A stretch of DNA of 62,893 nucleotides, filler included, from Lentisphaeria bacterium (GTDB lineage Bacteria > Verrucomicrobiota > Lentisphaeria > JABSQK01 > JAWLHB01): NCBI GenBank assembly GCA_041690595.1. It is 5 parts of 5 records of this genome, joined end to end, with 100 filler letters (N's around TTAATTAATTAA, not from the genome) between each part and the next. Parts side by side here need not be neighbours in the genome. Positions count along the whole stretch, not along the records: positions 45,719 to 62,893 come from JAWLHB010000074.1; 4 more parts are not named here. One strand, given 5' to 3'. This document shows positions 10,006 through 62,893 of this stretch, piece by piece. The notes beneath the pieces are model-generated. The model searched no databases, was not told the origin of the DNA, and was given only the letters and a program-made list of their open reading frames with translations. A program made the translations under genes and the position numbers. Numbering within the stretch: position 1 is the first letter of the stretch; every line of letters begins with the position of its first letter.

Positions 10006-10058
10006 CCCTCGCGGAACCTCTTCCTCACCGGACGGGCAAGTCACCGTCCGGTGAGGCT

Positions 10059-44569: not shown

Positions 44570-45210
44570 GTGGGGGAGAGGTTCTCCGAACCGCGACGGA
44601 GCCGCTCTCTGAGCGGCGACCTGCTGCTCCCGCGCTCCCTGGGCACGCCACTCGCCTGAGTGGCACCGGCGTTGGGCGTTGCCCCTTCCCAACCTCCATC
44701 ACTCCTCCCGCGCTCCCTGGGCACGCCACTCGCCTGAGTGGCCTCCCGCGCCTCGCCCCTCCCCAAAACCTCGGTCAATTCCTCGGTCGCATTCCTGGGC
44801 ACGCCACTCGCCTGAGTGGCCTCCCGCGCCTCGCCCCATCCCAAAACCTCGGTCAATTCCTCGGTGCCGGCACATCGATACCCCGAACCGCGACCATCTT
44901 CCCAGTGGGGCAGACATTCCTGTCTGCCTTCAGACCTCACTACGCCAAACATCCAAGCTTGCCGAGGTGGCCGCAATCATCCTGATGGCGTTGGCCTCTA
45001 TTACTTGGGCCTGCAGCCAAGGCTTGCCCGCACTTTGCGCTCTCTGTGTTCTTTGTGGTCAATGCCTTGAGCTCCTTCGTCTCCCTTCGAGTTCTTCGTG
45101 GTCTCCACACCGCCCCATCTCCGTGCCTCCGTGCCTCCGTGGTTCATAACCGTCCGTCCCCGTGGCCCCCTTCTTTCGTGCCACGTTCCGTCCTCCCCGC
45201 GTCCCCGCTC
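44570..45210. repeat. Cluster of several REP-like palindromes and short tandem repeats
   Basis: GCCACTCGCCTGAGTGGC at 44647, 44725 and 44803 (78-bp period); GCCGCTC-tct-GAGCGGC; GGCAGACA-ttcc-TGTCTGCC; CTCCGTG x3. Confidence 0.85.
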
Positions 45211-45718: not shown

Positions 45719-45870
45719 TGGCCGCAGCCTTCGATGTGAGCGAGCGGGTCTCCCTGTTCGCCCGGGTGGAGAACCTGCTGGACGAGGAGTACCTGGCGGC
45801 GCGCCGCCCAGCCGGCGTCCGGCCCGGGCGACCCCAGACGGCTCTGGTCGGGGTGAATCTCAGCTTCTGA
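45719..45870 (+). CDS. C-terminus of a TonB-dependent receptor (FecA-like), partial
   Basis: Frame from 45721 reads ...SLFARVENLLDEEYLAARRPAGVRPGRPQTALVGVNLSF* (terminal Phe). Confidence 0.8.
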
Positions 45871-46025
45871 TCCGCACGGAACGGTCGCGCCGGCTCGATT
45901 CGGGCCGGCCGCCTTCCGCATGGCGCATATCCTACAGACCGGCTGCCGCAAATTTAGAGACGATAGCTCTGCAGCTGTGTGCAACTGAGGATTAGTTGCA
46001 ATGACGTGCCTCGGTCTCTAAGCTG

Positions 46026-46265
46026 ATGAGCCGGCGTGAGAAGCAGATACGCAAATTCCTTGCTGAGGGAGCTCAGCTAACTTGGGAGGATGCAGTTCGG
46101 TTTCTCGCGGCTTTCAACTTTGAGCAGCTTCCACCGGGAAAGGGTTCCCGGCGAAAGTCCGTGCACAGAGTCACTGGAAGGCTAGTCATCCTTCCGCATC
46201 CCAGCAATCGAATCAAAGGGTACATGCGCTCCCAGATCATAGAAGCAGCAATATGGCTGTATTGA
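46026..46265 (+). CDS. hicA: HicA-family toxin
   Basis: 79 aa basic protein, 'GKGSRRK..H', 'PHPSNRIKGY'; overlaps hicB. Confidence 0.8.
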   Translation: MSRREKQIRKFLAEGAQLTWEDAVRFLAAFNFEQLPPGKGSRRKSVHRVTGRLVILPHPSNRIKGYMRSQIIEAAIWLY

Positions 46266-46642
46266 AGCACCGCGGCTATGTCGGATCGGTCGAATTGTCG
46301 ATCGACGACGAGGTACTTTTCGGCAAACTGCAGTTCATCGATGACCTGGTGACCTATGAAGCGACCGACATCGCTGGCTTAAAAGCTGCCTTCGAAGATG
46401 CGGTTGAAGACTATGTTGAGACCCGCAGATCCCTTGGGCGAGAACCGTCGCAAACGTGCAAGGGGTCATTCAACGTTCGGATTCCACCGGAGCTGCACAA
46501 GGCTTTGGCCACGAAAGCGCTAGAAGAACGTCGAACGTTGAATGACATCATCAAAGCCGCTTGTTACGCGTATGTTGACAGGCGAAAGCCGCATGCCCTC
46601 GACGAAGAGTCACAATGCTGCACCCGCTCAATGTCGGGATAG
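46253..46642 (+). CDS. hicB: HicB-family antitoxin (RHH C-terminus)
   Basis: 'YVGSVELSIDDEVLFGKLQFIDDLVTYE', 'GSFNVRIPPELH'. Confidence 0.93.
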   Translation: MAVLKHRGYVGSVELSIDDEVLFGKLQFIDDLVTYEATDIAGLKAAFEDAVEDYVETRRSLGREPSQTCKGSFNVRIPPELHKALATKALEERRTLNDIIKAACYAYVDRRKPHALDEESQCCTRSMSG

Positions 46643-46699
46643 AGCGAGGGAAAGCCCTTGATCGCGCCCAACCGGCCTGAAACCCGTACTTTTGCCTGA

Positions 46700-46715
46700 T
46701 AGTGCCCAGGGCGGG
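46700..46715 (-). other. att remnant (displaced tRNA-Leu 3' end) bounding element B
   Basis: TAGTGCCCAGGGCGGG matches 52991-53006 at 15/16 positions. Confidence 0.7.
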
Positions 46716-46793
46716 CGGCTTCAGGCCAGTATAACCGAGGGCTCTGGGGCAGAATTGCCTACCCACTGTTAAACCGGCCTCGGGCGTTGCTGT

Positions 46794-47051
46794 CTATTGG
46801 AAGAAGGCGTATTGAACGACCAGAACAAGCACCCCGATAACCACACCGACGACCACCTTCTTTATGACTCCGTCGGCAGCGCCGCTGGTGTGTCGGAAGC
46901 CCTCACCACCATTCCGAGCCGCACGTAAGGTCTGGGCTTCGAAATCTACATCCCCATCGACGCGCACTCCATCGCCTCCATTGTCGTACACCTCGATACG
47001 TCCGATGCTTATCTTCGGTTTTCCATTGTCTTTCATACGCTGATCTGGCAT
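46794..47051 (-). CDS. Small C-terminally anchored membrane protein
   Basis: Two 'NGG.G' repeats (beta-helix-like) and TM VVVGVVIGVLVLVVQYAFF. Confidence 0.6.
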   Translation of the reverse strand: MPDQRMKDNGKPKISIGRIEVYDNGGDGVRVDGDVDFEAQTLRAARNGGEGFRHTSGAADGVIKKVVVGVVIGVLVLVVQYAFFQ

Positions 47052-47079
47052 CGCCGCCGGTCCAAATAAGTCTACACGT

Positions 47080-47376
47080 CTACTGCTGCAATGACGAAAC
47101 GAAAAACGGCCCCGAAGGGCCGTTCTGTGGGAAGGGGGAGGGAACTTGCCAGGAGATGCTGCCCGCCCTGGCCGCCCGGCGGATAGCCCGCCGCCCCTCC
47201 GGGACCAGCTCCGCCACCGCTGCTGCCGTCGGCTTCTGCTTCTTGCGCTTCAGGGCTGCGATGGCCTTGTGGACAGCCTCCGTCCGCGCCGCCTGATCCT
47301 TCCCGAGTTCCTTGTCCACCTTGACCGGCTTCAGCACGTCGTCTGCGGTGGGGTAGGTGTGGGTTGCCTTGGCCAT
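47080..47376 (-). CDS. Small basic putative DNA-binding protein (KfrA-N-like HTH)
   Basis: GGAG RBS; 'AIAALKRKKQKPTAAAVAEL'; 3' end uncertain because the ORF runs through a terminator. Confidence 0.55.
   Translation of the reverse strand: MAKATHTYPTADDVLKPVKVDKELGKDQAARTEAVHKAIAALKRKKQKPTAAAVAELVPEGRRAIRRAARAGSISWQVPSPFPQNGPSGPFFVSSLQQ
47101..47124 (-). terminator. Intrinsic terminator with UUCG tetraloop
   Basis: AACGGCCC-TTCG-GGGCCGTT-TTTC. Confidence 0.8.
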
Positions 47377-47496
47377 GTTGGGTCTCCGTTGTGGCTGTAG
47401 GTTCAGCTTCAGTCAGGTCCGGAGACTGGCCAAAGAGGGTTCCCGATACCGATTCCGAATAGCGGCGCTACTGTGAAGGAGCCAGCGCGAACAGAG

Positions 47497-48927
47497 TCAT
47501 GCCTTTGCCGCCCGCTTCTGCGACTTTCGCTTCTGTGGTGCCTTTTGTTTTGAAGTTGCCGGCGATTTCTTTGAGGAGCTAGAGACATTTCTAGAGTCCA
47601 AAAGCATGTCCAGGACTTCCGGAAGAATCTTCTCTGCTGAACCTTGGGCTGAAAGAATTCTCGATTCATCAAAGCCATCGATTCGGGCAGAGTAAAGGCG
47701 CCGAAGATTCCGTACCAATCCCCAATTCGGATCGCACACGATCAGTCGCTGGTTAGACTTCCGTGTCATCGACCGCTCAACGATCTTGTTTATGTAGGTA
47801 TCGGCTTCCGAAAAGGAGAAGCCAACTACGATAATATGATCTGCTGTTTCGAGGCTTATTCGTGCTGTGTTCCAAAGGTTGATTAGGTTCGGAAAAATGA
47901 TGAACTTCAACCCCATCGGCGGGATGAGAAGCGGGCGACGCTGTCCTCCACAATTCTTGCAGATTCCGATTACCGCAAAGCTCGTAGTGTCGCTTTCGTA
48001 CGCTGCCTTCAAATCCAAGAGTGAAAAATCCCGGACATCGTGGCATGAATCGCAGTAGGACCAGTTTATGGACCCATGAATCTTGACCAGATCAATCGCA
48101 CTGTCATTAGCAGCGCCCGTCTCATCGATGTAGGTATTTACGGGAACGTTGGCCCGAATCAGGGCTTCATCTACGCAGCCATCATAGTTAGTGGTAACAA
48201 TTGATGATTTTGGGTGCTTTTTAACGAAATTGACTACTGCTTCGTGTCCAGCGTTGGGACGTGCCGGAATCATCGTGCCCGTGAGTAGCCCGAATAGAAC
48301 CTGTAGTGTGTCTTGAAGAAGAGCGATCGAAGAGGCGTTTACCCGCGGTGGCGATCTGCGCCGGCCCAATGGGCCAGATTCAACCTCCGAGCTACTGGCG
48401 CGAAAGAGAAAATAGTCAAGCAGGTCCGTGACGCTGCTACTCTTTGCAGCAAAATCAGCCAAATGAGCGGCGGTTAGTAAATCCTCAATGTTGTCGATCT
48501 TGTGCTCATTGCACCAGTCGGCCAGCCTATCTAGATCTTCTCTACCGATCTTACCCGCCCTCCTCAGCAATTCCGGGAGGAGATTGGCCACGGTTGGAAT
48601 AGAAGATGGTTCTGGAGCAGATGCTCCCGCGCCTAGCAATAGACACACTCGGTTCGTGGGCTTTAGGGTCAACTGCTTAATCTGACCATCGATCGCATCG
48701 ATTTTCTTGATCTCGCGCTCGATTCGCTTAACCACGCTCTCGGGAGCGATTTCAGTACTTATAATCTCGGCGTAGTTAGCTTCCCAAAGATTCTTCCATT
48801 CTGGGTGTAGGGGTTCGTCGCTGTGCTCAGTGAGCATCTCGTACAATGATCGAACTACTCGAAAGGGATCGCGGCTCCGTCGAGCCCCTTCAAGTAGACG
48901 GCTTTGTTGCCGGGAGATATCAGCCAC
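47497..48927 (-). CDS. SIR2-family protein (putative NADase, defence candidate)
   Basis: 'LLLGAGAS', 'IVTTNYD', 'LVKIHGS', CDSC/CKNC, 'IIVVGFSFSEAD'; visibly lower GC than neighbours. Confidence 0.9.
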   Translation of the reverse strand: MADISRQQSRLLEGARRSRDPFRVVRSLYEMLTEHSDEPLHPEWKNLWEANYAEIISTEIAPESVVKRIEREIKKIDAIDGQIKQLTLKPTNRVCLLLGAGASAPEPSSIPTVANLLPELLRRAGKIGREDLDRLADWCNEHKIDNIEDLLTAAHLADFAAKSSSVTDLLDYFLFRASSSEVESGPLGRRRSPPRVNASSIALLQDTLQVLFGLLTGTMIPARPNAGHEAVVNFVKKHPKSSIVTTNYDGCVDEALIRANVPVNTYIDETGAANDSAIDLVKIHGSINWSYCDSCHDVRDFSLLDLKAAYESDTTSFAVIGICKNCGGQRRPLLIPPMGLKFIIFPNLINLWNTARISLETADHIIVVGFSFSEADTYINKIVERSMTRKSNQRLIVCDPNWGLVRNLRRLYSARIDGFDESRILSAQGSAEKILPEVLDMLLDSRNVSSSSKKSPATSKQKAPQKRKSQKRAAKA

Positions 48928-49001
48928 AGGCCAGCCCTACCCCATTCGTTCAATGTCATGTGATGATAGCCAATTTCCGCATTGACCGCAGTCTAAGAGG
49001 G

Positions 49002-49658
49002 CTATGGGAGCTGATGTCCAACCTCAACCTGGAGCGCCGCGAGCAACGACTGCGACTCCCCGAATACCTGGGCGGCGTCCAGATCCCCGTAGGCGAGGAA
49101 CGTGCCGAACATGTTCTCCCGGCTTGCCTTCTTCACGGCCTCCAGCCGGTTGCTGCCGGCGATGCGGAAGTTCTGAACCCACAGGCCCGGCTCGATGCTG
49201 CCGTCTGCCACGCCCGCGGTTACCCGCAACTGCTGCGCCAGGGCGATGGCCTTCCACGCCTCCAGCGTGCGCTGGGCTGCCTCTACGTACTGGTCGGCGG
49301 CAGCGGCCTCCGCCGCGTCGATGGTGCGGAAGTAGTGGGTGCGGAGCACTCCCTTGGCGCGGTCCAGCTCTTGCTCGGCGTCCTGCAGCCGTTGGGCCAG
49401 CCCATCCCGCATCGCCTGTAGCTCCGTGCCGCTGAGGCCTTCATACGCCGGCAGGGGTGAGGCTTCCCCCAGGGCTACCGCCGCCGCGTTTACCCGCCTT
49501 TGCGCCGTATACGTCTGGTAAGAACGCTGTTCCTCTCGCAGGTTGGCCTGCGCGGTGCGGATACGTGTGACCTCCTTCTCGGCAGACTGCTTCTGCTGGG
49601 CCAGTTGGCGCAGGCGAGCCATGTCAGTGTCGGCAATGTAGTCGCGCAGGGTTTTCAT
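49002..49658 (-). CDS. Alpha-helical coiled-coil hypothetical protein
   Basis: Heptad-rich A/Q/E/R sequence; ATGA overlap with the upstream gene. Confidence 0.75.
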   Translation of the reverse strand: MKTLRDYIADTDMARLRQLAQQKQSAEKEVTRIRTAQANLREEQRSYQTYTAQRRVNAAAVALGEASPLPAYEGLSGTELQAMRDGLAQRLQDAEQELDRAKGVLRTHYFRTIDAAEAAAADQYVEAAQRTLEAWKAIALAQQLRVTAGVADGSIEPGLWVQNFRIAGSNRLEAVKKASRENMFGTFLAYGDLDAAQVFGESQSLLAALQVEVGHQLP

Positions 49659-51292
49659 CGTTCTGGTCTCCGGTTGTAGATGAGTTCTCCTGTCGCCGCG
49701 CCGCCGACTATGGTGCCGCGCACGGCGGGGTTCCGTATGGCCTCCGACATGAGCAGCAAGCGGCGCTGATGGGGCGTCAGGCCCAACATGATCTGCCGCA
49801 TTGGCTCTGTCGTGACCGGGTTCGCCAGGGGCAGCATCCGCATGACCTGCCGGGTCTGGTTCAGCACGCTGGTGACGGAGTTATCGGTGGGGACGTAACC
49901 GTCATAGATGGCGGCTGCCTCGGCGGCTTCGCGCTGCATCGGTGCGTTACCTGTCGCCGTTCCCATCTTGTCGACGCGCTTGTCCGCATTCCGACTGCCA
50001 CGGGCGAGATCGTCAGGTGTGATGTTGCCGCCCTGGGAGGCGGGACGACCTTTGTAGCCAGCGGCGCGGCGAACGGCTGCGAACCTGGCAAACTGGCCAT
50101 CCACGAACTGCAGGAACTTCTGCACGCCCTCGGGCATGGCCGCTCGCAGCCGTTCCCGCGCCATCTGGTAGAACTGCGCCTCCTGGGGGTACTTCTTGCC
50201 GCGCAGGCGGGCGGCTTCGCGCAGCGTCGTGTCCAGGGAATCTATGGCCCGACCTGGGGGCGTGGAGCCATGCTTGGCAAAGGTCTGGTAAGCCTCGTCG
50301 AGCGTCTTCCCCACGCGGTTCGCCAGCTTGCCGGGCAGGGTCTCCGTCGCTTGCCGCATGATGCTTCCGAAGTCGTCGGCGAGGTCGCGCTGCATCTGAA
50401 TGGGGCGGGACCACACTTGCTCGTATGCTTCGCGGAACGCCTGCTCCAGCGCCTTCACACCTTCCTGGCCCGGTGGAATCCGCAGGTTCGGGTTCGGGCT
50501 GGCCGCTTGCAGCATCCGCTGGCTCCAGGCGTCCGCGCTCTCTTGTTGGAGCCGAGCTACCTGACGCGCCGCGCCGGGCGTAGTGGCGAGCACCTGCTCC
50601 GCTGCTGGCGCCATCCGCCCGCTGGCCGCTTGGCCGGGGGTAAGGGGCACGTTGTCCTGGAGTAGCTGTTGAGCCTGTGGAGACCGCCTAATGCCCCTGG
50701 CGTACTTGCCCACCGCCCCGGCTGCTGCGCCGCCTACAGCCGCGCCCAGCGCCCCCTGGGCGGCGTTGCGGGTTCGGCTTTCCCCTTCACCGGGTGCGCG
50801 TATGTACTCCATGCCCGCGCTCGCCGCTACGTCACCGGCTGCTGTCAGGCCGCGTTGCCCGCCAAGCGTTCTGGTCAGAATCTTTGGCGCGTACTTCGCG
50901 CCCCTGGCGACCGCGCCACCGGGAGCGGCGAGCATTGCCACGTCTGCGGCCATCCGGCCCGCCGTCGCTGCGCCGCCCCTCACGGTGTCGGCCCGGATCA
51001 GCTCTGCCTTCTCGGGTTCGCTCAGGTCGGTGAACAAGTCCTTTGCGCCGAGCACCATCTCCCGCGTGCTCGCGCCGATGCCGGACATGAAATCACCGAC
51101 GGCGGGGGCGTTCCTGTTCACCCAGTCAATCGGGCCGATGCCGGTCTCCGGCTTCTTCTGGCGGGTGCGGATTGCCGCCTGTCGGATACCGCGTTGCTCG
51201 TGCAGCCGCGTGAGCTTCGCCTGTAGCTGGGCCTTGGTCGTTCCTTCGGACACGTTGCGGATGATCGTGCCATCCGGCATGCGCACGTCCAT
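49655..51292 (-). CDS. Phage DNA-transfer/ejection-like protein
   Basis: N-terminus MDVRMPDGTIIRNVSEGTTKAQL; Gly/Ala-rich membrane-insertion-type segments; 'VPLTPGQA'. Confidence 0.6.
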   Translation of the reverse strand: MDVRMPDGTIIRNVSEGTTKAQLQAKLTRLHEQRGIRQAAIRTRQKKPETGIGPIDWVNRNAPAVGDFMSGIGASTREMVLGAKDLFTDLSEPEKAELIRADTVRGGAATAGRMAADVAMLAAPGGAVARGAKYAPKILTRTLGGQRGLTAAGDVAASAGMEYIRAPGEGESRTRNAAQGALGAAVGGAAAGAVGKYARGIRRSPQAQQLLQDNVPLTPGQAASGRMAPAAEQVLATTPGAARQVARLQQESADAWSQRMLQAASPNPNLRIPPGQEGVKALEQAFREAYEQVWSRPIQMQRDLADDFGSIMRQATETLPGKLANRVGKTLDEAYQTFAKHGSTPPGRAIDSLDTTLREAARLRGKKYPQEAQFYQMARERLRAAMPEGVQKFLQFVDGQFARFAAVRRAAGYKGRPASQGGNITPDDLARGSRNADKRVDKMGTATGNAPMQREAAEAAAIYDGYVPTDNSVTSVLNQTRQVMRMLPLANPVTTEPMRQIMLGLTPHQRRLLLMSEAIRNPAVRGTIVGGAATGELIYNRRPER

Positions 51293-51999
51293 CAGGGCAG
51301 GTCCTCAAAGTCGATTACTTCGGCCTCCGGCTGTCGCTGACGCCGGGCCGGGGGAGGGGGAGTACTGACGCCACCGGAGCGCCCGCCGCGCAGGTTCTCG
51401 TTCTCCTTCTCAGCGTTCTCGGCAATGATCCGAAGGCGCGTAACGGCGTCCTCGGCACCGATGCCGGGGGCGAGGGGCGACCACTTTTGCGTCTCCGTGA
51501 TCTCGTAGCCGGTGAGCGCTGACCCGAACTCGCTGTTGCGAATCTGGCCGATCAGCCGGTTCATCTCAGCCCGCAGGGCACGCTCGTCCTCGTCGTAGGC
51601 GGCGTACTCTACGAAGTCACCCGCGCCGGGGACGAGAAGGGTAGTGACGATGGATTTGCGCTCGGCCCCTGGCGCGAACAGCACGCCGCTGCGACAGAGA
51701 AGCAAGCCGGGAATTACGCTGGGCGCGTCCGGGGGTGGGCTGACCACCACATTGCCAAGCGGCTCGGCAACGGCGGCGGATTCCACCTTGCCCGCCGCCT
51801 GCAGGATGATATCTGCCAGATATTCGTATGATATCGCGGCGATATCGTTGGCGTCCCGCTCGGAGCCATCTGGTCCGGGGGGAATGGCAACGACTGCCGT
51901 GCCCTTGCCCTTCGGGTACTCCCACTTTGGCGGCTTGTTTTTCCACCAGTAGTCGGCGACCCGGTACACTGTGCCCTCGGGCTGCTTCTTGTTGGACAT
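51292..51999 (-). CDS. Hypothetical protein with ejection-protein-like C-terminus
   Basis: 'IRNSEFGSALTGYE', ends 'VIDFEDLP*' with TGATG coupling to the next gene. Confidence 0.55.
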   Translation of the reverse strand: MSNKKQPEGTVYRVADYWWKNKPPKWEYPKGKGTAVVAIPPGPDGSERDANDIAAISYEYLADIILQAAGKVESAAVAEPLGNVVVSPPPDAPSVIPGLLLCRSGVLFAPGAERKSIVTTLLVPGAGDFVEYAAYDEDERALRAEMNRLIGQIRNSEFGSALTGYEITETQKWSPLAPGIGAEDAVTRLRIIAENAEKENENLRGGRSGGVSTPPPPARRQRQPEAEVIDFEDLP

Positions 52000-52010
52000 C
52001 TGGTGAGCCC

Positions 52011-52816
52011 TTACGCGCCGGTTGCGCGGGCTGTACGGCGCGGTTTGCGGCTGGCAGCCATCCGCCTGTACTTCTCTGTCCCGTCAGCTTCAGGGCGGTA
52101 GCCGAACAGCCACTCCGCGAGGCTGTCGATGGGAACGCGGCGGGTGTTCTTGGTCAGCCACTCGGCTTGCAGGTGGCCGTCCGGATTGCTTGGTAGACGG
52201 TCCATCGCGTGCCGAGGCCCAAGGCAATGATTTCGCTGACCTCGAACGCGACTTGATCTTTATGGGAAGGCGGGCGCTGGAGTTCTTCAAGAAGATGGTC
52301 CGCCTCTACAATGCCCGCCACCCGGTCGCGCCACTTGCGCAGGTCCTCCGGGTTTAGCTTGTCCAGCTTCAGCTTGGCGATGGGGTCGTAGAACACCTTG
52401 GCGTTGAACCGCTTGCGGGCGTCGGCCTCGGTGCCGTCCCTGCCTTCGCGCTCGAGGTTCCGCAGGTACTTCTCGCACGCGTCCTTTACGGTGATGGCGC
52501 GGGTGCGTCCATGGGCGTCGAGCTTTTCCCACCACTCCAGGGCCTTATCCCAGGCTTCGTCGTGGCCGTTGTAGGTGGGGTCGGTGGGATCGAGGGGCAT
52601 CAAGGTTTCCTGGAACCGCTGCCCGGTCTCAGCATCCCGGTGCCGTACCTTCCACCACTCCCCACCGGAGAGCGTGCGGCAGTATCCCAGGTACAGGCCG
52701 GGGCGGTTCATGGGGTACCAGTAAGGCTCCGTGCGGGGCGGCAGCTTCTTCCTATCGGTGCTGGTGCGGATGGGCCAGTTTCTCTGTCTTTGTTTTCTCA
52801 CTTTGTTGGTCTCCAA
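52011..52816 (-). pseudogene. Truncated tyrosine integrase (arm and core-binding domains) joined to a frameshifted Xis-like HTH
   Basis: 'KKLPPRTEPYW...GLYLGY', 'ITVKDACEKYL', 'LRKWRD'; no R-K-HxxR-Y catalytic domain; HTH split by a frameshift near 52181. Confidence 0.7.
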
Positions 52817-52990
52817 ACGTTAGGCAAGTCATTTGCTCCACTGTTACCACTGTTATCCACTGCTATTGCTGTTACGTACTGCGGCAAGCGCAGGCTAGCC
52901 TGCACCAACAACAGGAGCAAGAAAAATCAATGGAATCAGTGGCTTACTTGGTTGCCTATGCTTGGCTACGTTTGGCTACGATAGGGGACG

Positions 52991-53044
52991 TGGTGCCCAG
53001 GGCGGGACTCGAACCCGCACGCCTGACGGCACTGGAACCTAAAT
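52991..53044 (-). other. att site: displaced 3' half of tRNA-Leu (54 bp)
   Basis: Matches 62796-62849 at 51/54 positions; similarity ends at the anticodon loop. Confidence 0.92.
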
Positions 53045-53178
53045 GCGCTATGCCACTGATTTTGCATGCTTATCTGGTCTTGCGTCGCCTATTTCTGCGG
53101 CGTCTAGGCTTGCCAGGATAGGCGAGGGCGGGCGTTGTCGGCGCATGATTGGCCCAAAACTGACCCACGACTCTATCT

Positions 53179-54012
53179 CTAAGGATCTATGGCTTCAAAG
53201 TACGCGACCAACTCATCGGCTACACTCGGTTGCACTCGGAGCACCCACTCAACATCGCTGAGTAGCGCAATGGTGGCTAGGTCTTCGACGAGGGAATCGT
53301 ATTTGAAGCGCCAAGAGTTGGTGTAGTACCACTGATCGACCTTATGCGGCGACGATGAAGGCGTCTGAAGTTCATCGTAGGTCCGTAGCAGCCTCCCAAG
53401 GCGCTCTAGATGTATGGTCAGTAGATCGACGTCAGCTTGCAACACACCAACCCCGTCGACGGAAAAATTGTCGATGGCCAAACTGATTTCATGGGGTAAT
53501 CCCTCAACGCTCAATCTGGTATGTCGCAACCGCTCACGCAGAGGGGAATGTAGCCCTCTCTCAACTGCGAGAACGTCATCGATAAACTGAGATTGGATGC
53601 GAATTGCCTTGTCTAGGTCGTTCAGCTTCTGGTCGCGCGCCTGCTGTTCAGTCTGGCGCACCATGATGGTTGTCTGTGCCCGTTGCGTTTCGAGTGCTGC
53701 ATCGCGTGCTTCCCTGGCAGCCATCAGTTCATCCGATTGCATGCGGTTGGCGTCCCGAGTTTCTTCCAACTCTCGGTGTTGCAGAGCCACCGTCAACAGC
53801 AAACCCATGAACGCCAAGAAACTGAAGAAGGGATTCAGAGTTCCACCTAGATAGTCTCCGAACTGACCCCAGGCCTCCGGTCTGATAGAAAGAGGTTCAC
53901 CCCAATGAATGACGACGTAGGCGCCCAGAGTGGAAACAAGCGCGAGGAACCCGAGCGCAAGCAATACTCCCAGGATCAACAGGACTTGCCTTGAACCAAT
54001 TTTCCTTTGCAT
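53179..54012 (-). CDS. Two-TM plus coiled-coil protein with putative abortive-infection-type N-terminal motif
   Basis: 'WGQFGDYLGGTLNPFFSFLAFMGLLLTVALQHREL'. Confidence 0.65.
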   Translation of the reverse strand: MQRKIGSRQVLLILGVLLALGFLALVSTLGAYVVIHWGEPLSIRPEAWGQFGDYLGGTLNPFFSFLAFMGLLLTVALQHRELEETRDANRMQSDELMAAREARDAALETQRAQTTIMVRQTEQQARDQKLNDLDKAIRIQSQFIDDVLAVERGLHSPLRERLRHTRLSVEGLPHEISLAIDNFSVDGVGVLQADVDLLTIHLERLGRLLRTYDELQTPSSSPHKVDQWYYTNSWRFKYDSLVEDLATIALLSDVEWVLRVQPSVADELVAYFEAIDP

Positions 54013-54276
54013 CAACGGCAACTTCCCCCAGCCAGCCTTACAACGCTTCATTGTCTCCGACGGCGGTTGTTCACGCACGAGTCGCCGCGAAGATCTCCTA
54101 CAGCAGGGCCTTGACGATTCTTCCACACTGCCTTTCGCGCCACCTGCCAGAGTCGCGGCCGAGGCTCTTCTAAGTGGTGGGACGGCCCGGAGAGACGGGC
54201 ACCGATCCTGCGAAAACGTCAAGCCAGCACGGCGTAGACGTTCCAGGGCGTTCGTCTCCAAATCTCCACTTTACCG

Positions 54277-54705
54277 TTAATAGGCTTGAAATACGCCGAA
54301 CACGAATGCGAGTCCTGCCAATAGTGGAAGCCAAACTCGCAGCTTACGAATTGTCTTTCCGAGCTTCTCGATCTCTGGTGTGTATGGCCATTCTGAAGTA
54401 CCCCGCCCTTGGAACTCCTGTTCCCAAGCGACCTTTTGGTCCCGAGCGTATTCGATGCGCTCCGCATACTGCTTCGACATTTCCTGAGTGAGCACAAGTT
54501 GGACCACCAAAAATGAGACCGCCAACGCAACTGAGACGATCGCCCAGTCAGAGTTCAGGATTCCGTGGTTCTCGTGGATCACCCAATTGGCCGCGATCAG
54601 CCCGTATGCCAACTGAACCGACCTAGTCTCAAGGAGACCTGTCCAGTGATTGAACCCCTCAAGTAGCTCGGTGGTTCCTTCGGCGGCCTCGTTGAACTTT
54701 GACAT
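54277..54705 (-). CDS. Small multi-TM hypothetical protein
   Basis: Two to three hydrophobic spans; starts 6 bp after the HU-like gene. Confidence 0.7.
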   Translation of the reverse strand: MSKFNEAAEGTTELLEGFNHWTGLLETRSVQLAYGLIAANWVIHENHGILNSDWAIVSVALAVSFLVVQLVLTQEMSKQYAERIEYARDQKVAWEQEFQGRGTSEWPYTPEIEKLGKTIRKLRVWLPLLAGLAFVFGVFQAY

Positions 54706-54711
54706 CTCGAA

Positions 54712-55119
54712 CTAGCGGCCTCCGCCGATACCGTTTCTATTCGCAGCTTCTTTCAGCCTCTTCAATGGGGTGATTCGCACCCTAGTCGTTGCGGGCTTCG
54801 CAGGGATGACGATCTCTTCGCCCGTTGCGGGATTGCGGCCCATACGCTTCTTGGTGGCCGGCCGCTTCACCGCACGCACTCTCAGGAGACCCGGCAACGT
54901 GAACTCTCCAACTCCTGGCCTCTTAAGTTGCCGCTCCATGAGGTTCTCAAGCTCGCTCAGAACTGCAGCCACCTGACTGCGTGACAAGTTGGTGCGATCG
55001 GCGATTTCCTCCAGAATGACCGAGCGTGTCATCTTCTGCGCTACGGGAGCATTCGCAGTCGCCTCCGCGGTTCTCTTTCCCGTTGTCGGCTTCCTGGCAG
55101 GTGCCTTCTTCGTTGCCAT
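54712..55119 (-). CDS. HU/IHF-family histone-like DNA-binding protein with basic N-tail
   Basis: 'GEFTLPGLLRV', 'RPATKKRMGRNPATGEEIVIPAKPA', 'PLKRLKEA'. Confidence 0.9.
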   Translation of the reverse strand: MATKKAPARKPTTGKRTAEATANAPVAQKMTRSVILEEIADRTNLSRSQVAAVLSELENLMERQLKRPGVGEFTLPGLLRVRAVKRPATKKRMGRNPATGEEIVIPAKPATTRVRITPLKRLKEAANRNGIGGGR

Positions 55120-55536
55120 CCGCTTCCCTCTGTTAACTAAAGGCGCGACAAATCTACCACCTAGCGAACGTGTCGGGCGATAGGCGGCTTCGGCAGGATG
55201 AACCCGAAGCAACTCCCTCCGCAGTGACCGTCGACGATGCTCCGGGGTAGAGCGACCGCGTTGCTGCACCGCATCGCGCAGGGTCGGGCAGTAGCCGAAA
55301 ATATCCTCTGCGGTGCGGTAGGTTTGCGCTTTCAATTCCTTTCCTGCCTTTCGGAAGTTGGATGCCCGCCACGCGGCTGGAGAGCCCAAGCGTCACACCT
55401 GGGCAAAAACCACTGCGGGCTGTCGGCTGTTGTTCTGGAATACCGGACACCTGCCGACTGGTCCGGTCCCGGCTCGCGTTTTTCCTGACGGCTTCTTCTG
55501 CGGGCACCGTCAGCCACGAACCGGGCCCTAGCCCGC

Positions 55537-56766
55537 TTAAGTCGTTACACCAGACATAACCACGAAGGACGCCGGGCGAACCGCCAGGAAGTCCACTCGG
55601 GCCACGCCGATGATTTCCACTAGCAGATTGCTCGCCATGCTCGTGGTGGCATCGAGAATCCGAATCGTCGGATTCATCCGCACGCCCATGACGAAGTCCC
55701 GGAAGTTCCCCATCTCAATGTGGTAGTTCTCGGGAGACGTCACCGTGTCGGCATTCGTGCTGACGAACTTCGGAACGTCCGCCACAGCCGAGGGCATTTG
55801 CAGCGGCGTGTTATCCGAGGAAATGCCGGTTTTCAGCTTGGCATACGTCTTCCACACGTTCGGATGCCAAATCATCCCGGTCAGCTCGTCCAGGCTGTTA
55901 TTGGCGTTCAGGAAGGTTGCGATAGCGTTCAACACCTCATCCCAATTGGTCGGCGTCCCGACGTTGGTCTCGGTGCCCACACCTGCCGTTTGCTGAATGC
56001 CGGGAATCAGCGCCGGGGAACCGCCCGCACCTTGGATACCTGCTTTGTCGATAGCGGCTCCGAAGGCTCGGGTATACGCTCGGGTGATCTGCTCGCCAAA
56101 GTTCGGCACGTCTTGAGTTGCCTCAAGCGAAACCTGAGTCCGAACCGCCACCGTACGCGCAGTCAGCACTCGGCTTGCGAACGTCGGATCCGTTGCGCTC
56201 AGCGAGGCACCTTCGGTATCCCGCCAGGCAAAGGTCGGGTCGCCGGTTTGATGGGAGTACGTCAGCGTTTGTGCCTGCATCGGCACGGTCATGGTACCGG
56301 CTCGCATCAGGACACTCTGCGCCCGCGCCATGTCGATCCATTCATTGACGAAACCGGCAGGGACCAGCACGCCCGTGGATGTCGTGGCAACCGACTTCTG
56401 ATCGGCTACGAACTCCAGGGCCTCTTTATCCTCACAAGCGTTCCCCAGCACCAGCGCACGCGCCCAGCGGTCCAGAGACACGGCAGGGGCTTCTTTCGGC
56501 TGCAACTCGGGGATGTCGGCCAGCTTCACGTCGCTGGGGACGATAAAGCCTTTCTTGTCACCGCCCATCGGCAGCTCGGTGTAAGGCTTGGCTTTCTTAT
56601 CCTCGATCGCCATGGGGATGCGACCGCCCGCAGCCTCGATGGCTTCAATGCGGCCTTTCAGTTCTTCGTTTTCGCCCCGGAGAGTCTGAATCGACTTATC
56701 CTGAGACTCAGTGAAATGGGTGATGGTCTCGAAGATCTTTTCGACTTCTTTGAGTACTTCAGACAT
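55537..56766 (-). CDS. HK97-fold major capsid protein
   Basis: N-terminal coiled-coil delta-like region, 'TGVLVPAGFVNEWID', 'IDKAGIQGAG', 'GNFRDFVMGVR', 'RVDFLAVRPASF'; GAGG RBS. Confidence 0.9.
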   Translation of the reverse strand: MSEVLKEVEKIFETITHFTESQDKSIQTLRGENEELKGRIEAIEAAGGRIPMAIEDKKAKPYTELPMGGDKKGFIVPSDVKLADIPELQPKEAPAVSLDRWARALVLGNACEDKEALEFVADQKSVATTSTGVLVPAGFVNEWIDMARAQSVLMRAGTMTVPMQAQTLTYSHQTGDPTFAWRDTEGASLSATDPTFASRVLTARTVAVRTQVSLEATQDVPNFGEQITRAYTRAFGAAIDKAGIQGAGGSPALIPGIQQTAGVGTETNVGTPTNWDEVLNAIATFLNANNSLDELTGMIWHPNVWKTYAKLKTGISSDNTPLQMPSAVADVPKFVSTNADTVTSPENYHIEMGNFRDFVMGVRMNPTIRILDATTSMASNLLVEIIGVARVDFLAVRPASFVVMSGVTT

Positions 56767-56943
56767 GGAATAACCTCACATATAGATCTAGCGTGTGAGG
56801 CTTGCGGGCGGGAGTTTTTCGGACGCGCGCGAAGCCTCGCCCTGAACTCGCCCCGGTCTTTGTCGCGCTGATCGTTTGCGATCTACCGCGCCTAAGCGAT
56901 TCAGTCAGGCTCCCGCGCCGTTCGTTGCGAACGTGAGGAACAG

Positions 56944-57138
56944 TCATATTGTCCCTGTATTCTCGGGGCGACGCAACTTCTGCTCCAGCTCGGAAAGCCG
57001 CTGTTTTAGCTCGTCAGATTCGGCCTGACGCTCGCCCACGACTCCGCGCCATCCGACAGAAAGCAGCTTACGGGCTTGCCGATGGCTCAACCCGGCCTCA
57101 CGCAACACTCTCTCGATTTCAGGGCGCGTAGGTTCCAT
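56944..57138 (-). CDS. 64-aa protein resembling the C-terminal tail of HK97-type prohead proteases
   Basis: 'PEIERVLREAGLSHRQARKLLSVGW' plus coiled coil; GGAGG RBS. Confidence 0.6.
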   Translation of the reverse strand: MEPTRPEIERVLREAGLSHRQARKLLSVGWRGVVGERQAESDELKQRLSELEQKLRRPENTGTI

Positions 57139-57375
57139 TCAGTGCGCAACCTCCCGGTTCTGCTCGACAATGGCTTTAGCTGCCCGCCTGAGCCTCGCAG
57201 CGGCCATCTCAGCGCCGTATCTCTTCCGCAGGATCTCGGCAGCGCCAGACAGCAAGGCGTCTGCTAGAAGCTCTGGACGCGTCTCTAGCAGGGCCTGGTT
57301 TGTCACCCGCGTTAGTCCCTCAATGTACGTGTGGAGAACGGCTCGCTCGGTAAAAGTCATGTCGTCGTCGTTCAT
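57139..57375 (-). CDS. Hypothetical protein (78 aa)
   Basis: GGAGGAG RBS; ATGA overlap with the upstream gene. Confidence 0.65.
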   Translation of the reverse strand: MNDDDMTFTERAVLHTYIEGLTRVTNQALLETRPELLADALLSGAAEILRKRYGAEMAAARLRRAAKAIVEQNREVAH

Positions 57376-57653
57376 TGGCTCCTCCGCATCAGTTCCTCCC
57401 GCGCCGGGCAATCGTGGGTCAGCGGGTCCGCCTCCCACGGTGCTCGGCGTAGTTCACGCTTCAGCGCCCTGGTGTGCTCCAGATAGGCCGCGCATTCCGG
57501 GCAGTGGACGTTCGATTGAAGGCAGGCAATCTCTCCGTAGAGACAGGCGTCATAGCGACCCTGGTACTTGAGAGCTTCGCGGAAATGGTGAACGGCCTCG
57601 TCCGTAACTCCAGCCTGAATGTTCCTGGTCCTTCGGGTGCGCTTAGTGGGCAT
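57372..57653 (-). CDS. Hypothetical protein with Arg-rich N-terminus and Cys cluster (93 aa)
   Basis: MPTKRTRRTRN...; 'HCPEC'; RBS GGAGGGAG. Confidence 0.65.
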   Translation of the reverse strand: MPTKRTRRTRNIQAGVTDEAVHHFREALKYQGRYDACLYGEIACLQSNVHCPECAAYLEHTRALKRELRRAPWEADPLTHDCPAREELMRRSQ

Positions 57654-57849
57654 GGAACAGCGCCCTCCCTTCCTTGCTGTCCGCGTCGGGCAAACCGGGC
57701 ACCAGCTCACCGAAGAACTTCCACCCCACATAGGCGCTATGGCCCGGCGTTCCACGGCTCGGCACGTCGCCGTGTTCCCTTAGCCGATAGGCCCAGTCGG
57801 GCATGTCCTCGACGCGGTTGCGCGTCCGACGTGACCTTTTTGTTGGCAT
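57643..57849 (-). CDS. Hypothetical protein with Arg-rich N-terminus (68 aa)
   Basis: MPTKRSRRTRN...; starts 3 bp after the terS stop. Confidence 0.65.
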   Translation of the reverse strand: MPTKRSRRTRNRVEDMPDWAYRLREHGDVPSRGTPGHSAYVGWKFFGELVPGLPDADSKEGRALFHAH

Positions 57850-57852
57850 CTT

Positions 57853-58197
57853 CTAGTCTCCTTTCCACGCGGGAATGCTGGTGCCGGCAGGTCGGCCAAC
57901 GCGGTCTCGGATCGGCTCCAGGTCGAGATTCAATGCCTTTAGGGCCTGTAGGAATCCGTTTCTGGCGTCTTTCTCCAGCGCGCAGGCTGGGTTTACCTTC
58001 ACCTGGTTGTATCGGTCAGTCACCACCTCGCCGTGCTCGCGTATGGTTTCCTGCGCCGCTCTCATCCGGTCCAGACACTCGGCCGCAGTCGTGAGAAGCG
58101 CGATTCCTGCGGCATCGTCGATTTGGTACTCGTCGCGCAGCTCGCGCCAGAGCTTCCCGCCGTCTTTGCCTAGCTGTCGTGGTGTTTTCTTGCTCAT
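57853..58197 (-). CDS. Terminase small subunit (P27 family)
   Basis: 'PRQLGKDGGKLWREL', 'AQETIREHGEVVTDR..QVKVNPA', 'LKALNL'. Confidence 0.85.
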   Translation of the reverse strand: MSKKTPRQLGKDGGKLWRELRDEYQIDDAAGIALLTTAAECLDRMRAAQETIREHGEVVTDRYNQVKVNPACALEKDARNGFLQALKALNLDLEPIRDRVGRPAGTSIPAWKGD

Positions 58198-58394
58198 GAG
58201 GTCTCAAGATGGTTTGGCAGACTCAGTTCCGGGGCTACGAAAGGACACCGACGATTTCCCGTTTGTAGGTAGCCGTACCTTGGTACCCCCTGGTGCAGTG
58301 CAACATCGCTTTGCCTCTCCGTGAACTCTCTGCTGACAGCGTAAAAATGCGGTTAGCGCGCCGGTTCGCTGTGACTGAGCCGATGGCGTCATAC

Positions 58395-58601
58395 CTACCC
58401 CCGCTTCCTCTGTGCCTGCTGAGTCCGTGCCGTCAGTAGAGCGATTGCGTCGCGCTCGCTGGTCTCACCTGACTCGATACTCTGTAGAGCGTGGTGGCTG
58501 AGTCCTTCGCTAGCCTCGACGGTTGTCCGGCCCATGTCCGCCAAGCGACGGATCAGTGACGCGGCGTTGGGGTAGATCGCTCGGATCTCTCGTAACCTCA
58601 T
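58395..58601 (-). CDS. Hypothetical protein (68 aa)
   Basis: AGGAGA RBS before ATG 58601; MRLREIRAIYPNAASL... Confidence 0.5.
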   Translation of the reverse strand: MRLREIRAIYPNAASLIRRLADMGRTTVEASEGLSHHALQSIESGETSERDAIALLTARTQQAQRKRG

Positions 58602-58690
58602 GTGGTGGGGTTCTCCTGACGTGGTTCGATGGGAACGCGAAAGGTTCGGTCGTCGGCTGGGACTGTGAACGTGCGGTCCTCGCACACCAG

Positions 58691-58804
58691 GGGGACAGGG
58701 GACAGTGTCGGGGGTTTGCAACGCGTGCAACGGATCGTTCCTATATCCACGTATCGCGCGCGCGCGGAACGTCGATAAGTAGTGAACCCGTTGCATCCGT
58801 TGCA
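58691..58804. repeat. Iteron-like inverted repeat array, putative replication origin
   Basis: TGCAACG at 58717 and 58726, inverted CCGTTGCA at 58788 and 58797, central (CG)6, GGGGACA x2. Confidence 0.6.
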
Positions 58805-58807
58805 GAT

Positions 58808-60202
58808 TCATTCCAGCCAGGGCTCCGGTTCGATTTCTGGCCTCAATCTCAGGCCATCCCAGTGACGGCCGCCCTTGGAGCGGCTGTTGCCTCCGTGGAA
58901 CCCAGCGGCAGACAGCCTTTCTCCGAATGCCTTTTGCGTCCCTACCTTTTCGTTGGCTCCCTCGGCGTAGCGCCGCCAGGAAGCGAACAGCCGGCCGGGC
59001 GTTTCCCACAGATTCGGGCCACGCTCGCAGCAGTCCTCTAGCCACTGGTCGAACAGGTTCTCGGCTGCGAAGTATTCGGCGGTCGCGGCCGTGACCACCT
59101 TCGGCGGATTCAGCCCATCACGCTGGTAGGCCAAGGCACCGTCCACGATCCACCGGAGGATTCCCGGCCCTTCACGGAGCAGCTTGTCGCCCAGAGCCGG
59201 GTCGCGGTGCTCGCCCTTGAATGCCACCGTGAACGGCAGCAGGTGCAGCCGTCGCTTGATGGCCTCGTCGACGTTGCGGAGCCTCGGTTTGTGGTTGCCC
59301 GCGATCAGCAGCTTGAACTTGGGCTCGAAGGTGAAGAAGTCCGCCCGCATGAATCGGGCTGTGATTGGGTCGCCCCCGGTGAGCGCTTTGATGCGGCTCT
59401 CGGCCCAGGCTCGGCCCTCCTCGGTTTCCTGGGCGAGCACCAGGCGGGCACCGCGGAGCATTGCAAGGTCTGTCGGGTGCCGCTCCGTCTTCGACTCGAC
59501 GAAGGTCTCCATGCTGGCAACGGTGGCGTAGTCGCCCAGCACCTTCTGCAAGGTGTTGAGGAACGTACCTTTGCCGTTGCCGCCGGAGCCGTACAGGAAG
59601 AACAGCGCGTGCTCTCGCGTCGATCCGGTGGCGGCGTAGCCGGCGACTCGCTGGAGGAAATCGACATATTCGGCATCGCCCCCGGTCACTTGCTCGAGGA
59701 ACCGCTGCCAAGTGGGACACTCACCGGCAGGGGCCATCGCCGTGGATTTCGTCAGGTACGCCTCGGGGTCCGGGTCGTGCAGTTCTCCGGTGCTGAGGTC
59801 CACGATTCCCGAGGGCGTGTTCAGCAGCCAGTCGTGCCGGTCCCACTGGTCAGAGGTCGCCGCGTATCGCCTATCAGACTTCGCCAGACGCTCTACAGCG
59901 GCAATCACGTTGGCCTTGAGCCAATCCCTGTCGCCGTCGGTGCTCGCCCGGACGTGGCCCCGTATCCGGTCGTAGACGGCCAGGGTGCCGTCCTCCTTCC
60001 AGACGCTCCCGCTCCAAATCAGCCAGCGACCCCATAGCGCCACGTAGCGCTGCATGGGGTTGGCCGTGCAGAACGTGAGGGCGAGACCGTCTTCGGTCAC
60101 TTCGTTGCGTTTCGCCTTCCGCTGCGCTGTGCTCTCCAGCCGCGCCAGGGCTTCGTCGTAACGCTCCTGAGCCGCCAGGGCGGGCGGTAGTTCAGATCCC
60201 AT
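58808..60202 (-). CDS. P4/D5-family primase-helicase (D5_N plus SF3 helicase)
   Basis: 'WLLNTPSGIVDL.TG', 'LYGSGGNGKGTF', 'IKALTGGDPITARFMR', 'AGNHKP'. Confidence 0.93.
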   Translation of the reverse strand: MGSELPPALAAQERYDEALARLESTAQRKAKRNEVTEDGLALTFCTANPMQRYVALWGRWLIWSGSVWKEDGTLAVYDRIRGHVRASTDGDRDWLKANVIAAVERLAKSDRRYAATSDQWDRHDWLLNTPSGIVDLSTGELHDPDPEAYLTKSTAMAPAGECPTWQRFLEQVTGGDAEYVDFLQRVAGYAATGSTREHALFFLYGSGGNGKGTFLNTLQKVLGDYATVASMETFVESKTERHPTDLAMLRGARLVLAQETEEGRAWAESRIKALTGGDPITARFMRADFFTFEPKFKLLIAGNHKPRLRNVDEAIKRRLHLLPFTVAFKGEHRDPALGDKLLREGPGILRWIVDGALAYQRDGLNPPKVVTAATAEYFAAENLFDQWLEDCCERGPNLWETPGRLFASWRRYAEGANEKVGTQKAFGERLSAAGFHGGNSRSKGGRHWDGLRLRPEIEPEPWLE

Positions 60203-60611
60203 ACGCCGCCCCCGTCACTCTGTTGATGCGCATCACAGCCTGCTGGCAGCGCTCCAGATCGTTGTCGCTTACTGCATCGCCCCGGAGGAGTTGCCCAACC
60301 ACGCAGCCGCACACCATCGCGTCGTGCCGAACGATCTCCAGCGCATCGCGGGCACTGAGCCGGTGCTGGTCCCGCCTGGTGCTCCGGTGCGACTTGTCGG
60401 GGAATAGGTCGGTCATCTCCAGGCCCACGGCCTGCACCACGTCCTGAGCGCTGCACCCGGCGAAGCACCGCAAAAGCACCGTGCCGGCGTCTGTTTCTCG
60501 AACGGAAAGACTCGGGCTCCGGTCCTTGTGGGACGGACAGCGGGCGAGGTACTGGCCACGTCCGCGATCCCGAACACCCTCCAGGCGGGCGAGAAGGGCC
60601 TCGGCGCTCAT
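60192..60611 (-). CDS. Stand-alone primase-type (CHC2) zinc-finger protein
   Basis: 'ARCPSHKDRSPSLSV', 'LLRCFAGC', 'GLEMTDLF'. Confidence 0.85.
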   Translation of the reverse strand: MSAEALLARLEGVRDRGRGQYLARCPSHKDRSPSLSVRETDAGTVLLRCFAGCSAQDVVQAVGLEMTDLFPDKSHRSTRRDQHRLSARDALEIVRHDAMVCGCVVGQLLRGDAVSDNDLERCQQAVMRINRVTGAAYGI

Positions 60612-60868
60612 TCGTCACCCCCGTACACCGGCTTGAGGTACTGCACGACAACACCGGGAAACTTCAGCTCCAGGTGGCGCAGGGCCTCGTCTCGGGTCGC
60701 TCCGGTGGGGAACATCACCCGCGCAGCATTGCGGCGGGCGAGCTTGTATTCCCACACTGGGTGAAGCTGCTGGGCTAGGAGTTGATGAAAACTTGGGGCG
60801 GGGGCGGTAGAATCAGCGGTGCCAACCATGTGATTCTGCCGCGCCGGCCCTTGTGGCCGGCTTTCCAT
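60608..60868 (-). CDS. Hypothetical protein
   Basis: Translationally coupled between the xis-like and Zn-finger genes. Confidence 0.55.
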   Translation of the reverse strand: MESRPQGPARQNHMVGTADSTAPAPSFHQLLAQQLHPVWEYKLARRNAARVMFPTGATRDEALRHLELKFPGVVVQYLKPVYGGDE

Positions 60869-61099
60869 TCAGGCCGCCCTCTGCTTCGTCCGCTGCCGCC
60901 AAAAGTCGATGTACCGCGACCGCGACAGGAGAACCCGCTTGCGCTGCTCACCGCATCCAGTCTCGATGATGACCCCGGCTTCGCGCCAGGCGTCGCGGTA
61001 GCAGCTCAGCTCGTACTTGAACGTCTTTTCGGTGCGGAAGATGTCAAGGTTCTCCCGAACCGCGATCTTCCAGTACTTGTAGTCGTCGGGGTGATCCAC
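60869..61099 (-). CDS. Excisionase/AlpA-like winged-HTH protein
   Basis: 76 aa, 'EAGVIIE..GEQRKRVLLSRSRYIDFW'; GGAGG RBS; PICI position upstream of the replication genes. Confidence 0.55.
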   Translation of the reverse strand: MDHPDDYKYWKIAVRENLDIFRTEKTFKYELSCYRDAWREAGVIIETGCGEQRKRVLLSRSRYIDFWRQRTKQRAA

Positions 61100-61212
61100 A
61101 GAGGGCCTCCCTTGCTCGTTGGTTTCCGCGTGTTAGCGGGCGATGAGCAAAGGATGGCCAATTAATGCGGGGTAGGGCAGATGGCAATATGGCCCATGTC
61201 AATTGACAGGTG

Positions 61213-61524: not shown

Positions 61525-61528
61525 TGGT

Positions 61529-62880: not shown

Positions 62881-62893
62881 GATGCGTCGAAGC

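Follow-up and report, generated by a model that had tools for sequence, protein, structure and literature searches.

Element B is a 6.3-kb insertion at the 3' end of a leucine tRNA gene in a metagenome-assembled genome labelled Lentisphaeria bacterium (GCA_041690595.1). The stretch of DNA analysed, here called the window (62,893 nucleotides), consists of five contig pieces joined by N spacers. Element B (46700..52990) is found on one of them, contig C74 (17,175 bp, window 45719-62893), in an assembly of 8.1 Mb and 99 contigs. On balance, B is probably a defective deletion derivative of a satellite of podophages with P22 architecture, a satellite that is capsid-less but carries terminase and has ejection proteins of its own. 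A block of three B genes, encoding proteins of 235, 545 and 218 amino acids (aa), recurs in the same order in two unrelated contigs, L068 and L135. A preliminary description of this DNA had proposed a satellite family or its remnant. The remnant is the part of that proposal that fits better, since the integrase of B is catalytically dead and the relatives are fuller; B as a replicase-less new type is not supported.

Relatives of element B

L068 is the one true relative among 176 pattern matches in metagenome contigs, and L135 the one true relative among 8 in genome contigs; the family is rare in the genomes sampled. Both contigs have the same gene order: primase/helicase, a gene in the position of the small terminase (TerS), the large terminase (TerL), then genes for proteins of 281-295, 310-323, 545-552, 100-109 and 215-223 aa, and finally cargo. 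TerL matches phrog_38 with E values of 3.5e-85 in L068 and 2.4e-75 in L135. Only one open reading frame (ORF), spanning less than 0.9 kb, separates it from the ejection pair, and none of the portal, capsid and tail genes that phages have at this place is found there. Genes for capsid, portal, head-tail adaptor and connector are likewise missing from the sequenced parts of L068 and L135 and from B. The TerS-position gene matches only phrog_15261, which has no assigned function. The primases belong to different families (VapE-like in L068), whereas the TerL proteins are 53% identical, which would fit a modular family. With profiles derived only from L068 and L135, just the 218-, 235- and 545-aa ORFs are picked out of the 519 ORFs of the window, with E values of 3.4e-14, 2.7e-10 and 1.2e-64.

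Had homologues occurred only inside full prophages, the first view of B would have been refuted in favour of a deletion relic; the block recurs in L068 and L135 without head or tail genes. A search for the three coupled ORFs in elements lacking both capsid and terminase had also been proposed. The ORFs do occur without portal, capsid or tail genes, but in contigs that carry terminase. The idea of a replicase-less, terminase-less type is not supported, as both relatives encode a primase/helicase and a large terminase.

TerL-pair patterns found 22 viral loci, the best at 32% identity. Patterns of the L068/L135 clade detected no relative in IMG/VR, the fourth of them yielding 5 loci that were all larger ejection-position proteins of full phages, and tblastn of the L135 ejection protein against annotated phages found nothing. 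The 281-295-aa family is present in 0 of the 126 viral loci compared. For this gene the name 'scaffold-like' was tried and rejected as an assignment; it comes from position and a weak match whose score equals the best of 300 shuffles, and is a label only.

The cargo of the two relatives differs. After the 215-aa gene of L068, on the opposite strand (8633-10777), there is an AAA ATPase (PADLOC HEC-03B, E 3.7e-55) and a PDC-S32/AbiJ-N protein; judged by content, this would be a defence hotspot position, the place where B carries a SIR2 gene. In L135 the 223-aa gene is followed (9437-10362) by a 132-aa ORF with a weak match to Hoc-like head-decoration proteins and by a 176-aa ORF. The genome that contains the L135 contig is labelled Alicyclobacillaceae, and the true host of the contig may be a different one.

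The ejection-type proteins

In phage P22 the ejection genes are arranged in the order gp7-gp20-gp16. The 545-aa protein of B (49655..51292, minus strand) is all-helical and belongs to the family of the last, gp16-position gene, with 447 relatives detected at E<=0.001. The start of its gene overlaps the stop of the 235-aa gene. Three of the 60 family members scanned match phrog_26400, 'DNA ejection protein' (best E 2.7e-13), as do the phage copies in L064 and L025; B's own protein has no PHROG match. Its structural model (predicted local distance difference test score, pLDDT, 81.6) matches the fold of 19 uncharacterised proteins from uncultured tailed phages at E<=0.001. The model has no match in the PDB, and all PDB searches by sequence and by fold gave nothing significant; tblastn of the protein against annotated phages gave no match. 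An atlas neighbour, PF26808 Phage_P22_gp16, at 0.95, is only a lead towards possible homology with P22 proteins.

The 235-aa protein (51292..51999, minus strand) is a homologue of the penultimate, gp20-position gene by the profile match given above. In alignment it is about 80-90 residues shorter at the N-terminus than the proteins of L068 and L135. A profile that includes it matches the gene upstream of the ejection gene in phage L063 (E 1.4e-10). Word-index protein searches with the 235- and 218-aa proteins returned only self-matches. By sequence the 545- and 235-aa proteins are homologues of podophage ejection-position proteins, and the early label 'ejection-like' is upheld by phrog_26400 in family members, the L063 match and the phage gene order. 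Like the ejection module of P22 architecture, B has genes homologous to the last two genes of that module in uncultured podophages; unlike it, B has no gp7-position gene, nozzle, adaptor or tail fibre.

Members of the 545-aa family in viral contigs close the virion module just ahead of the tail fibre; the module starts with scaffold and capsid, continues with adaptor, nozzle, an acetyltransferase-like gene and a virion protein, and finishes with the ejection genes. A motif scan collected 60 viral loci, 55 with members of the family by profile and 5 with larger proteins at the same position. In one group of phages (L086, L108, L110, L126 and L127) the protein at the last ejection position, 755-956 aa long in the complete cases, retains the short motif although the family profile does not detect it. 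Altogether the family is found in 71 of the 126 viral loci, and 68 of these 71 carry a head, tail or first-ejection marker nearby (the marker seeds were drawn from the same loci, a few of the matches are self-hits, and only some seeds are PHROG-named). None of these markers is present in L068, L135 or B.

Full virion modules surround most of the homologues whose context is known, which would suit another origin for B: a relic of an ordinary podophage prophage from which all genes between integrase and ejection genes have disappeared. A case of this kind may be seen in L177, the only 1 of 400 Gammaproteobacteria genomes detected with the family profile, where the 545-aa family is at a prophage-like end with an integrase and without a 218-aa gene; it lies at a contig start and is uninformative on head genes. 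The phylogeny does not link B to the capsid-less clade. FastTree with 85 rows (65 database proteins, B's among them, chosen from 137, and 20 locus proteins) groups B with P0002 and P0003, which are 79% and 40% identical to it, in a polytomy holding both the L068/L135 clade and a phage clade. However, phages usually have a tail-fibre gene after the last ejection gene, where B has the 218-aa family, and by BLAST the closest relative of the 545-aa protein with context is L068 (37%), above the phage copies (24-30%), with L135 at 29%. Because the block recurs without virion genes, and because the 218-aa family is found only in capsid-less contigs and in 0 of the 126 viral loci, we regard a plain prophage relic as unlikely.

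Of 41 genomes from the order and class of the host, only the source genome (G000) has the 545-aa protein. In a first genome scan none of 463 pattern matches was related.

The 218-aa protein and the cargo genes

The third gene of the block (49002..49658, minus strand), whose start overlaps the stop of the 545-aa gene, encodes a helical-hairpin coiled-coil protein that can be considered a marker of capsid-less elements. It is 25% identical to its L068 homologue (pairwise E 5e-10) and was modelled as a helical hairpin with a pLDDT of 60; fold searches found generic coiled coils only. The L068 homologue has no tblastn match in annotated phages. The profile detected 2 of 400 genomes of the class Gammaproteobacteria, both weakly; the better match (E 7.6e-6) is in a Mu-like, transposase-rich stretch and was left out of the membership. 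Among 401 genomes of the class to which a Novosphingobium-labelled genome belongs, the profile detected none. A language-model search placed the protein among 30 unnamed clusters of the 215-219-aa type, the top three mostly from Pseudomonadota. Among named clusters the nearest, at 0.92 and with low recognition, was one in which 20% of the members are Psu. Assignment to P4 Sid or Psu was considered and is unsupported (hhalign probability 0.1-0.2%, 3-row profile).

The genes that follow are cargo or of unassigned family. A stand-alone SIR2-domain protein of 476 aa (47497..48927, minus strand) bears out the SIR2 domain of the preliminary description (Pfam SIR2_2, E 5.7e-8; PADLOC SIR2 models, E down to 1e-12). 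Its gene is low in G+C (G+C at third codon positions, GC3, 0.54 vs about 0.8 in B's core), and its product is a candidate anti-phage NADase carried as cargo. The 98-aa basic protein (47080..47376, minus strand) has core-like codon use (GC3 0.84) and was earlier labelled as helix-turn-helix, a label that finds no Pfam or PHROG match at E<=0.1. In the last codons of this ORF a G+C-rich hairpin with a T run can be read from the sequence, which the terminator scan did not report. An 85-aa protein with a C-terminal hydrophobic segment (46794..47051, minus strand), also cargo, has no family match.

Defence genes in this position invite the view that B is a domesticated defence island. After the loss of mobility, the ejection pair and the coiled coil would have been kept because they damage podophage particles that enter or are being assembled, through mismatched ejection proteins and interference with the capsid, and SIR2 would add another defence. 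The late ORFs are intact and translationally coupled, and besides SIR2 in B there is defence-like cargo (AAA ATPase, PDC-S32/AbiJ-like) at the same place in L068. A recent deletion accounts for the intact ORFs equally, and promoter-like sites number 0 against 1.7 expected. Such an island, compatible with a broken satellite as a later stage of it, is not likely but deserves some weight.

The truncated integrase

All ORFs of B are on the minus strand, with sizes and order as first described. The tyrosine integrase has 220 aa (52154..52816) and matches positions 99-219 of 611 in phrog_1 (E 2.4e-7). Arm-binding and core-binding domains extend to about residue 167, and an unrelated tail follows; the catalytic domain is absent, and the reading of this gene as an N-terminus only was correct. 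When it was aligned with 10 of 11 homologues (the eleventh matched only 44 residues and was omitted), similarity stopped near residue 167, and 9 of the 10 continue into a catalytic domain. By tblastn the truncated integrase has no match in annotated phages and none in plasmids.

A codon log-odds scan supports the same endpoint. The integrase signal stops near 52320, where the homology also finishes; for about 110 bp the best frame switches to the plus strand, and a 64-aa ORF follows (52011..52205, minus strand). The stretch 52210..52320 is a likely deletion scar, for which the evidence is modest. The 64-aa ORF has coding-like codon use and is possibly the tail of a lost gene. It has no Pfam or PHROG match at E<=0.1 and no significant match to L068 or L135 genes, and the name 'xis' given to it earlier is not sustained.

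As first reported, B itself has no capsid, terminase or replicase gene that could be found with Pfam, PHROG or relative-derived profiles. A search with L068+L135 profiles likewise found no small terminase in B. The P4 alpha primase, delta, epsilon and AlpA have no matches in B; an AlpA-type regulator was matched by none of the 8 element B ORFs scanned, and none is in view in L068 or L135. With an integrase that has no catalytic domain, and with no replicase or terminase, B therefore cannot move unaided.

The missing block could in principle be an artefact of metagenome assembly, B being on a short, possibly mis-binned contig of a metagenome-assembled genome. No collapse-causing repeat was reported at the junction, however, and the rest of C74 is coherent, which makes an artefact very improbable.

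Boundaries and attachment sites

Read along the minus strand, C74 has tRNA-Leu(TAG) (62880-62796) and then two islands, the neighbouring element A, which ends in a 54-nt copy of the tRNA 3' half, and element B, which ends in a 16-nt copy of the tRNA end; hicAB and the contig end follow. B occupies the 6.3 kb between the two copies of the tRNA-Leu 3' end. The attachment site (att) at the junction (52991..53044, minus strand) is the displaced 3' half of tRNA-Leu(TAG), 94% identical to 62796-62849, and forms both the right end of element A and the left end of element B. The repeat first described here was rightly seen as tRNA-derived, but its 16 bp are too short for a 54-nt half-tRNA. The distal att (46700..46715, minus strand) matches 52991-53006 in 15 of 16 positions. 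The repeat bounding B is real: with up to one mismatch the 16-mer occurs three times in the 8.1-Mb assembly, always on C74. A tRNA-Leu gene is also the target of P4.

The motif CCACTGTTA is found exactly at 46763, 52838 and 52847, with a one-mismatch copy at 52857. The two exact copies and the mismatched one near the integrase form a tandem array of candidate arm sites (52838..52865, plus strand), and the remaining copy is a lone arm-type site at the distal end (46763..46771, plus strand). All three exact copies are within about 150 nt of the two ends of B, and C74 (17 kb) has three where 500 mononucleotide shuffles gave 0-2. The motifs noted earlier at both ends thus stand in their exact form; at up to one mismatch the whole window has 9 copies against a mean of 5.2, which is not above chance. 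From their position between att and the integrase start, and by comparison with the annotated arm repeats of P4 attP, they are probably arm-binding sites of the integrase. Positions 52934..52946 (plus strand), adjoining the att, resemble the consensus for integration host factor (IHF), a pattern match with a putative function.

B's distal att (46690-46715) and the intact tRNA (62786-62811) share four extra bases and an A run past the tRNA 3' end, which the middle att does not have. The shared bases may be either native downstream sequence kept in the attP of element A or the trace of a third, A-like element in the direction of the contig end.

The retention of both att ends and of arm-type repeats could mean that B is a functional minimal element. 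For excision, copying and packaging it would depend entirely on others in trans (a fuller relative, element A or the helper), and it would itself contribute no more than late proteins and SIR2. An intact integrase and a primase are next door in element A, and P0002 and P0003 show that a B-like lineage exists. Against this, the integrase of B finishes in a scrambled stretch, and no second element with B's layout was found. In addition, because the att of A is the 54-nt half-tRNA and the ends of A have no CCACTGTTA repeats, the integrase of A probably uses another crossover. We consider a functional minimal element rather improbable.

A proposed history of element B

If B is a broken satellite, its intact family, represented by L068 and L135, would copy itself with its own primase/helicase and package its DNA with its own TerS-like protein and TerL into helper heads. 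Portal, capsid, tail and first ejection protein would be taken from the helper, and the last two ejection proteins would be loaded in the versions that the family encodes. Helper heads are perhaps reshaped by the proteins of 281-295 and 218 aa; that the 218-aa coiled coil, with cargo directly after it, probably acts on the helper capsid is a guess. B would have inserted first, at the tRNA-Leu 3' end, and element A later, further inside the same tRNA, pushing B outward. B would then have lost one block, from mid-integrase through the replication and terminase genes and the 281-295-aa gene to just before the late genes. It would now be fixed in place, retaining its late genes and SIR2 cargo.

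Several points weigh against this history. L068 and L135 are the only relatives with DNA context, and they are partial (10.9 and 12.1 kb), with no integrase, att or ends in view; head genes may lie elsewhere in them, and the Hoc-like match in L135, though weak, has an E value of 0.0015. FastTree does not resolve the 545-aa protein as sister to the L068/L135 clade. The three late ORFs are without stops, which is unexpected for an old relic, and the small 100-109-aa gene of the relatives is missing from B. Profile searches of B detected nothing left of TerL, of TerS or of the gene for the 281-295-aa protein, and for this reason we only infer that the parent of B had them.

Comparison with known satellites

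P4, phage-inducible chromosomal islands (PICI), capsid-forming PICI (cf-PICI), phage-inducible chromosomal minimalist islands (PICMI) and marine satellites are defined in PMC10085698, PMC10803314 and PMC9618062, which, like PMC11773190, are used here as far as the portions available go. The nearest case is EcCIMP1 of E. coli MP1, a PICI of 19,963 bp that podovirus Kapi1 mobilises (PMC11773190). After its primase it has three coding sequences (017-019) similar to DNA transfer and head proteins and shared with the helper, for which the authors propose a packaging role; its integrase, AlpA and primase are intact and no terminase was identifiable (PMC11773190). Ejection-type genes in a satellite are therefore already published (EcCIMP1, PMC11773190). 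EcCIMP1 resembles the proposed satellite family of B in being tRNA-integrated and capsid-less, with a podovirus helper and DNA-transfer-like genes (PMC11773190). In contrast to it, by description, L068 and L135 have a TerS-like gene, TerL and a gene of the 218-aa family, and B is without early genes.

Other satellites share single traits with B or its relatives. P4-like satellites also have a late operon ending in a coiled-coil gene, then cargo, and arm repeats beside the integrase gene; alpha, delta, epsilon and AlpA are absent from B, and terminase and ejection genes from P4 (PMC10085698). The position of the 218-aa gene at the end of the late operon, before cargo, recalls psu, although profile comparison with Sid and Psu was negative. 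The cf-PICIs, which encode capsid, portal and head-tail joining proteins, are like L068 and L135 in having their own large terminase; the sequenced parts of L068 and L135 have ejection genes instead of capsid, portal and head-tail genes (PMC10085698). PICMI resembles B in its size of about 6 kb, its few genes and no recognised capsid-remodelling genes. It depends on int, alpA and primase, with fis as its integration site, whereas B is at tRNA-Leu without intact int, alpA or primase (PMC10803314). B has none of the intact integrase, AlpA, primase-replicase and small terminase by which Gram-negative PICIs are recognised; its relatives have the primase.

The word 'ejection' is missing from the available portions of PMC10085698 and PMC9618062. 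A literature search, mostly of open-access main texts, found no satellite with TerL and ejection genes and no capsid, and a capsid-less family carrying both terminase and ejection genes was not found described.

It is possible, though we hold this only tentatively, that B marks an undescribed family that takes empty podophage heads and tails and controls DNA delivery with its own packaging motor and two ejection proteins, which B may supply in trans or use to poison helper particles. To our knowledge, the steps at which described satellites intervene are capsid size, packaging or the choice of tail. If the reading is true, DNA delivery would be added to the steps that satellites take over, and its control could help in crossing the envelope and in evading exclusion systems by which the ejection proteins of the helper are recognised. 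The combination of TerL with own ejection proteins would also offer a direct test of which ejection proteins are exchangeable and what they specify. Since the copy in B is probably broken, B is of value for pointing to the family, and L068 and L135 are the better objects of study.

Contig C74 and its neighbouring elements

A second tRNA-Leu(TAG) is present in the assembly on contig C25, 80% identical to that of C74. The C74 tRNA is matched in 13 of 14 same-order genomes, 12 at 74-83%, like C25, and one at 90%. Because the two tRNAs are only 80% identical and the same-order genomes resemble C25, C74 may be a mis-binned contig. Its tetranucleotide use is mildly atypical (19 of 429 windows lower), and in a Gammaproteobacteria sample of 400 genomes, 11 have homologues of B's integrase. 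No 16S gene was found in the assembly.

Element A (window 53045-62795), the second tRNA-Leu island, has 9.8 kb and appears PICI-like from its genes. It encodes a full integrase, a split primase (139-aa and 464-aa ORFs), a small terminase and, standing alone, a major head protein of HK97 type; neither a portal nor a large terminase was found in it. Its cargo genes include one for an HU-like protein and two for unnamed membrane proteins. A small basic ORF in A (61213-61524) and the one in B (47080-47376) look alike by eye in a helix-turn-helix-like stretch, and neither has a family match. Directly outside the distal att of B there is a hicA-hicB toxin-antitoxin pair (46026-46642), which may belong to the cargo of another element that is truncated where the contig stops. 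Direct repeats of 39-86 nt, with 59- and 78-nt spacing, are found at 316-811 and 44624-44865 of the window; the two sets are related to each other in inverted orientation and appear to be interspersed host-genome repeats.

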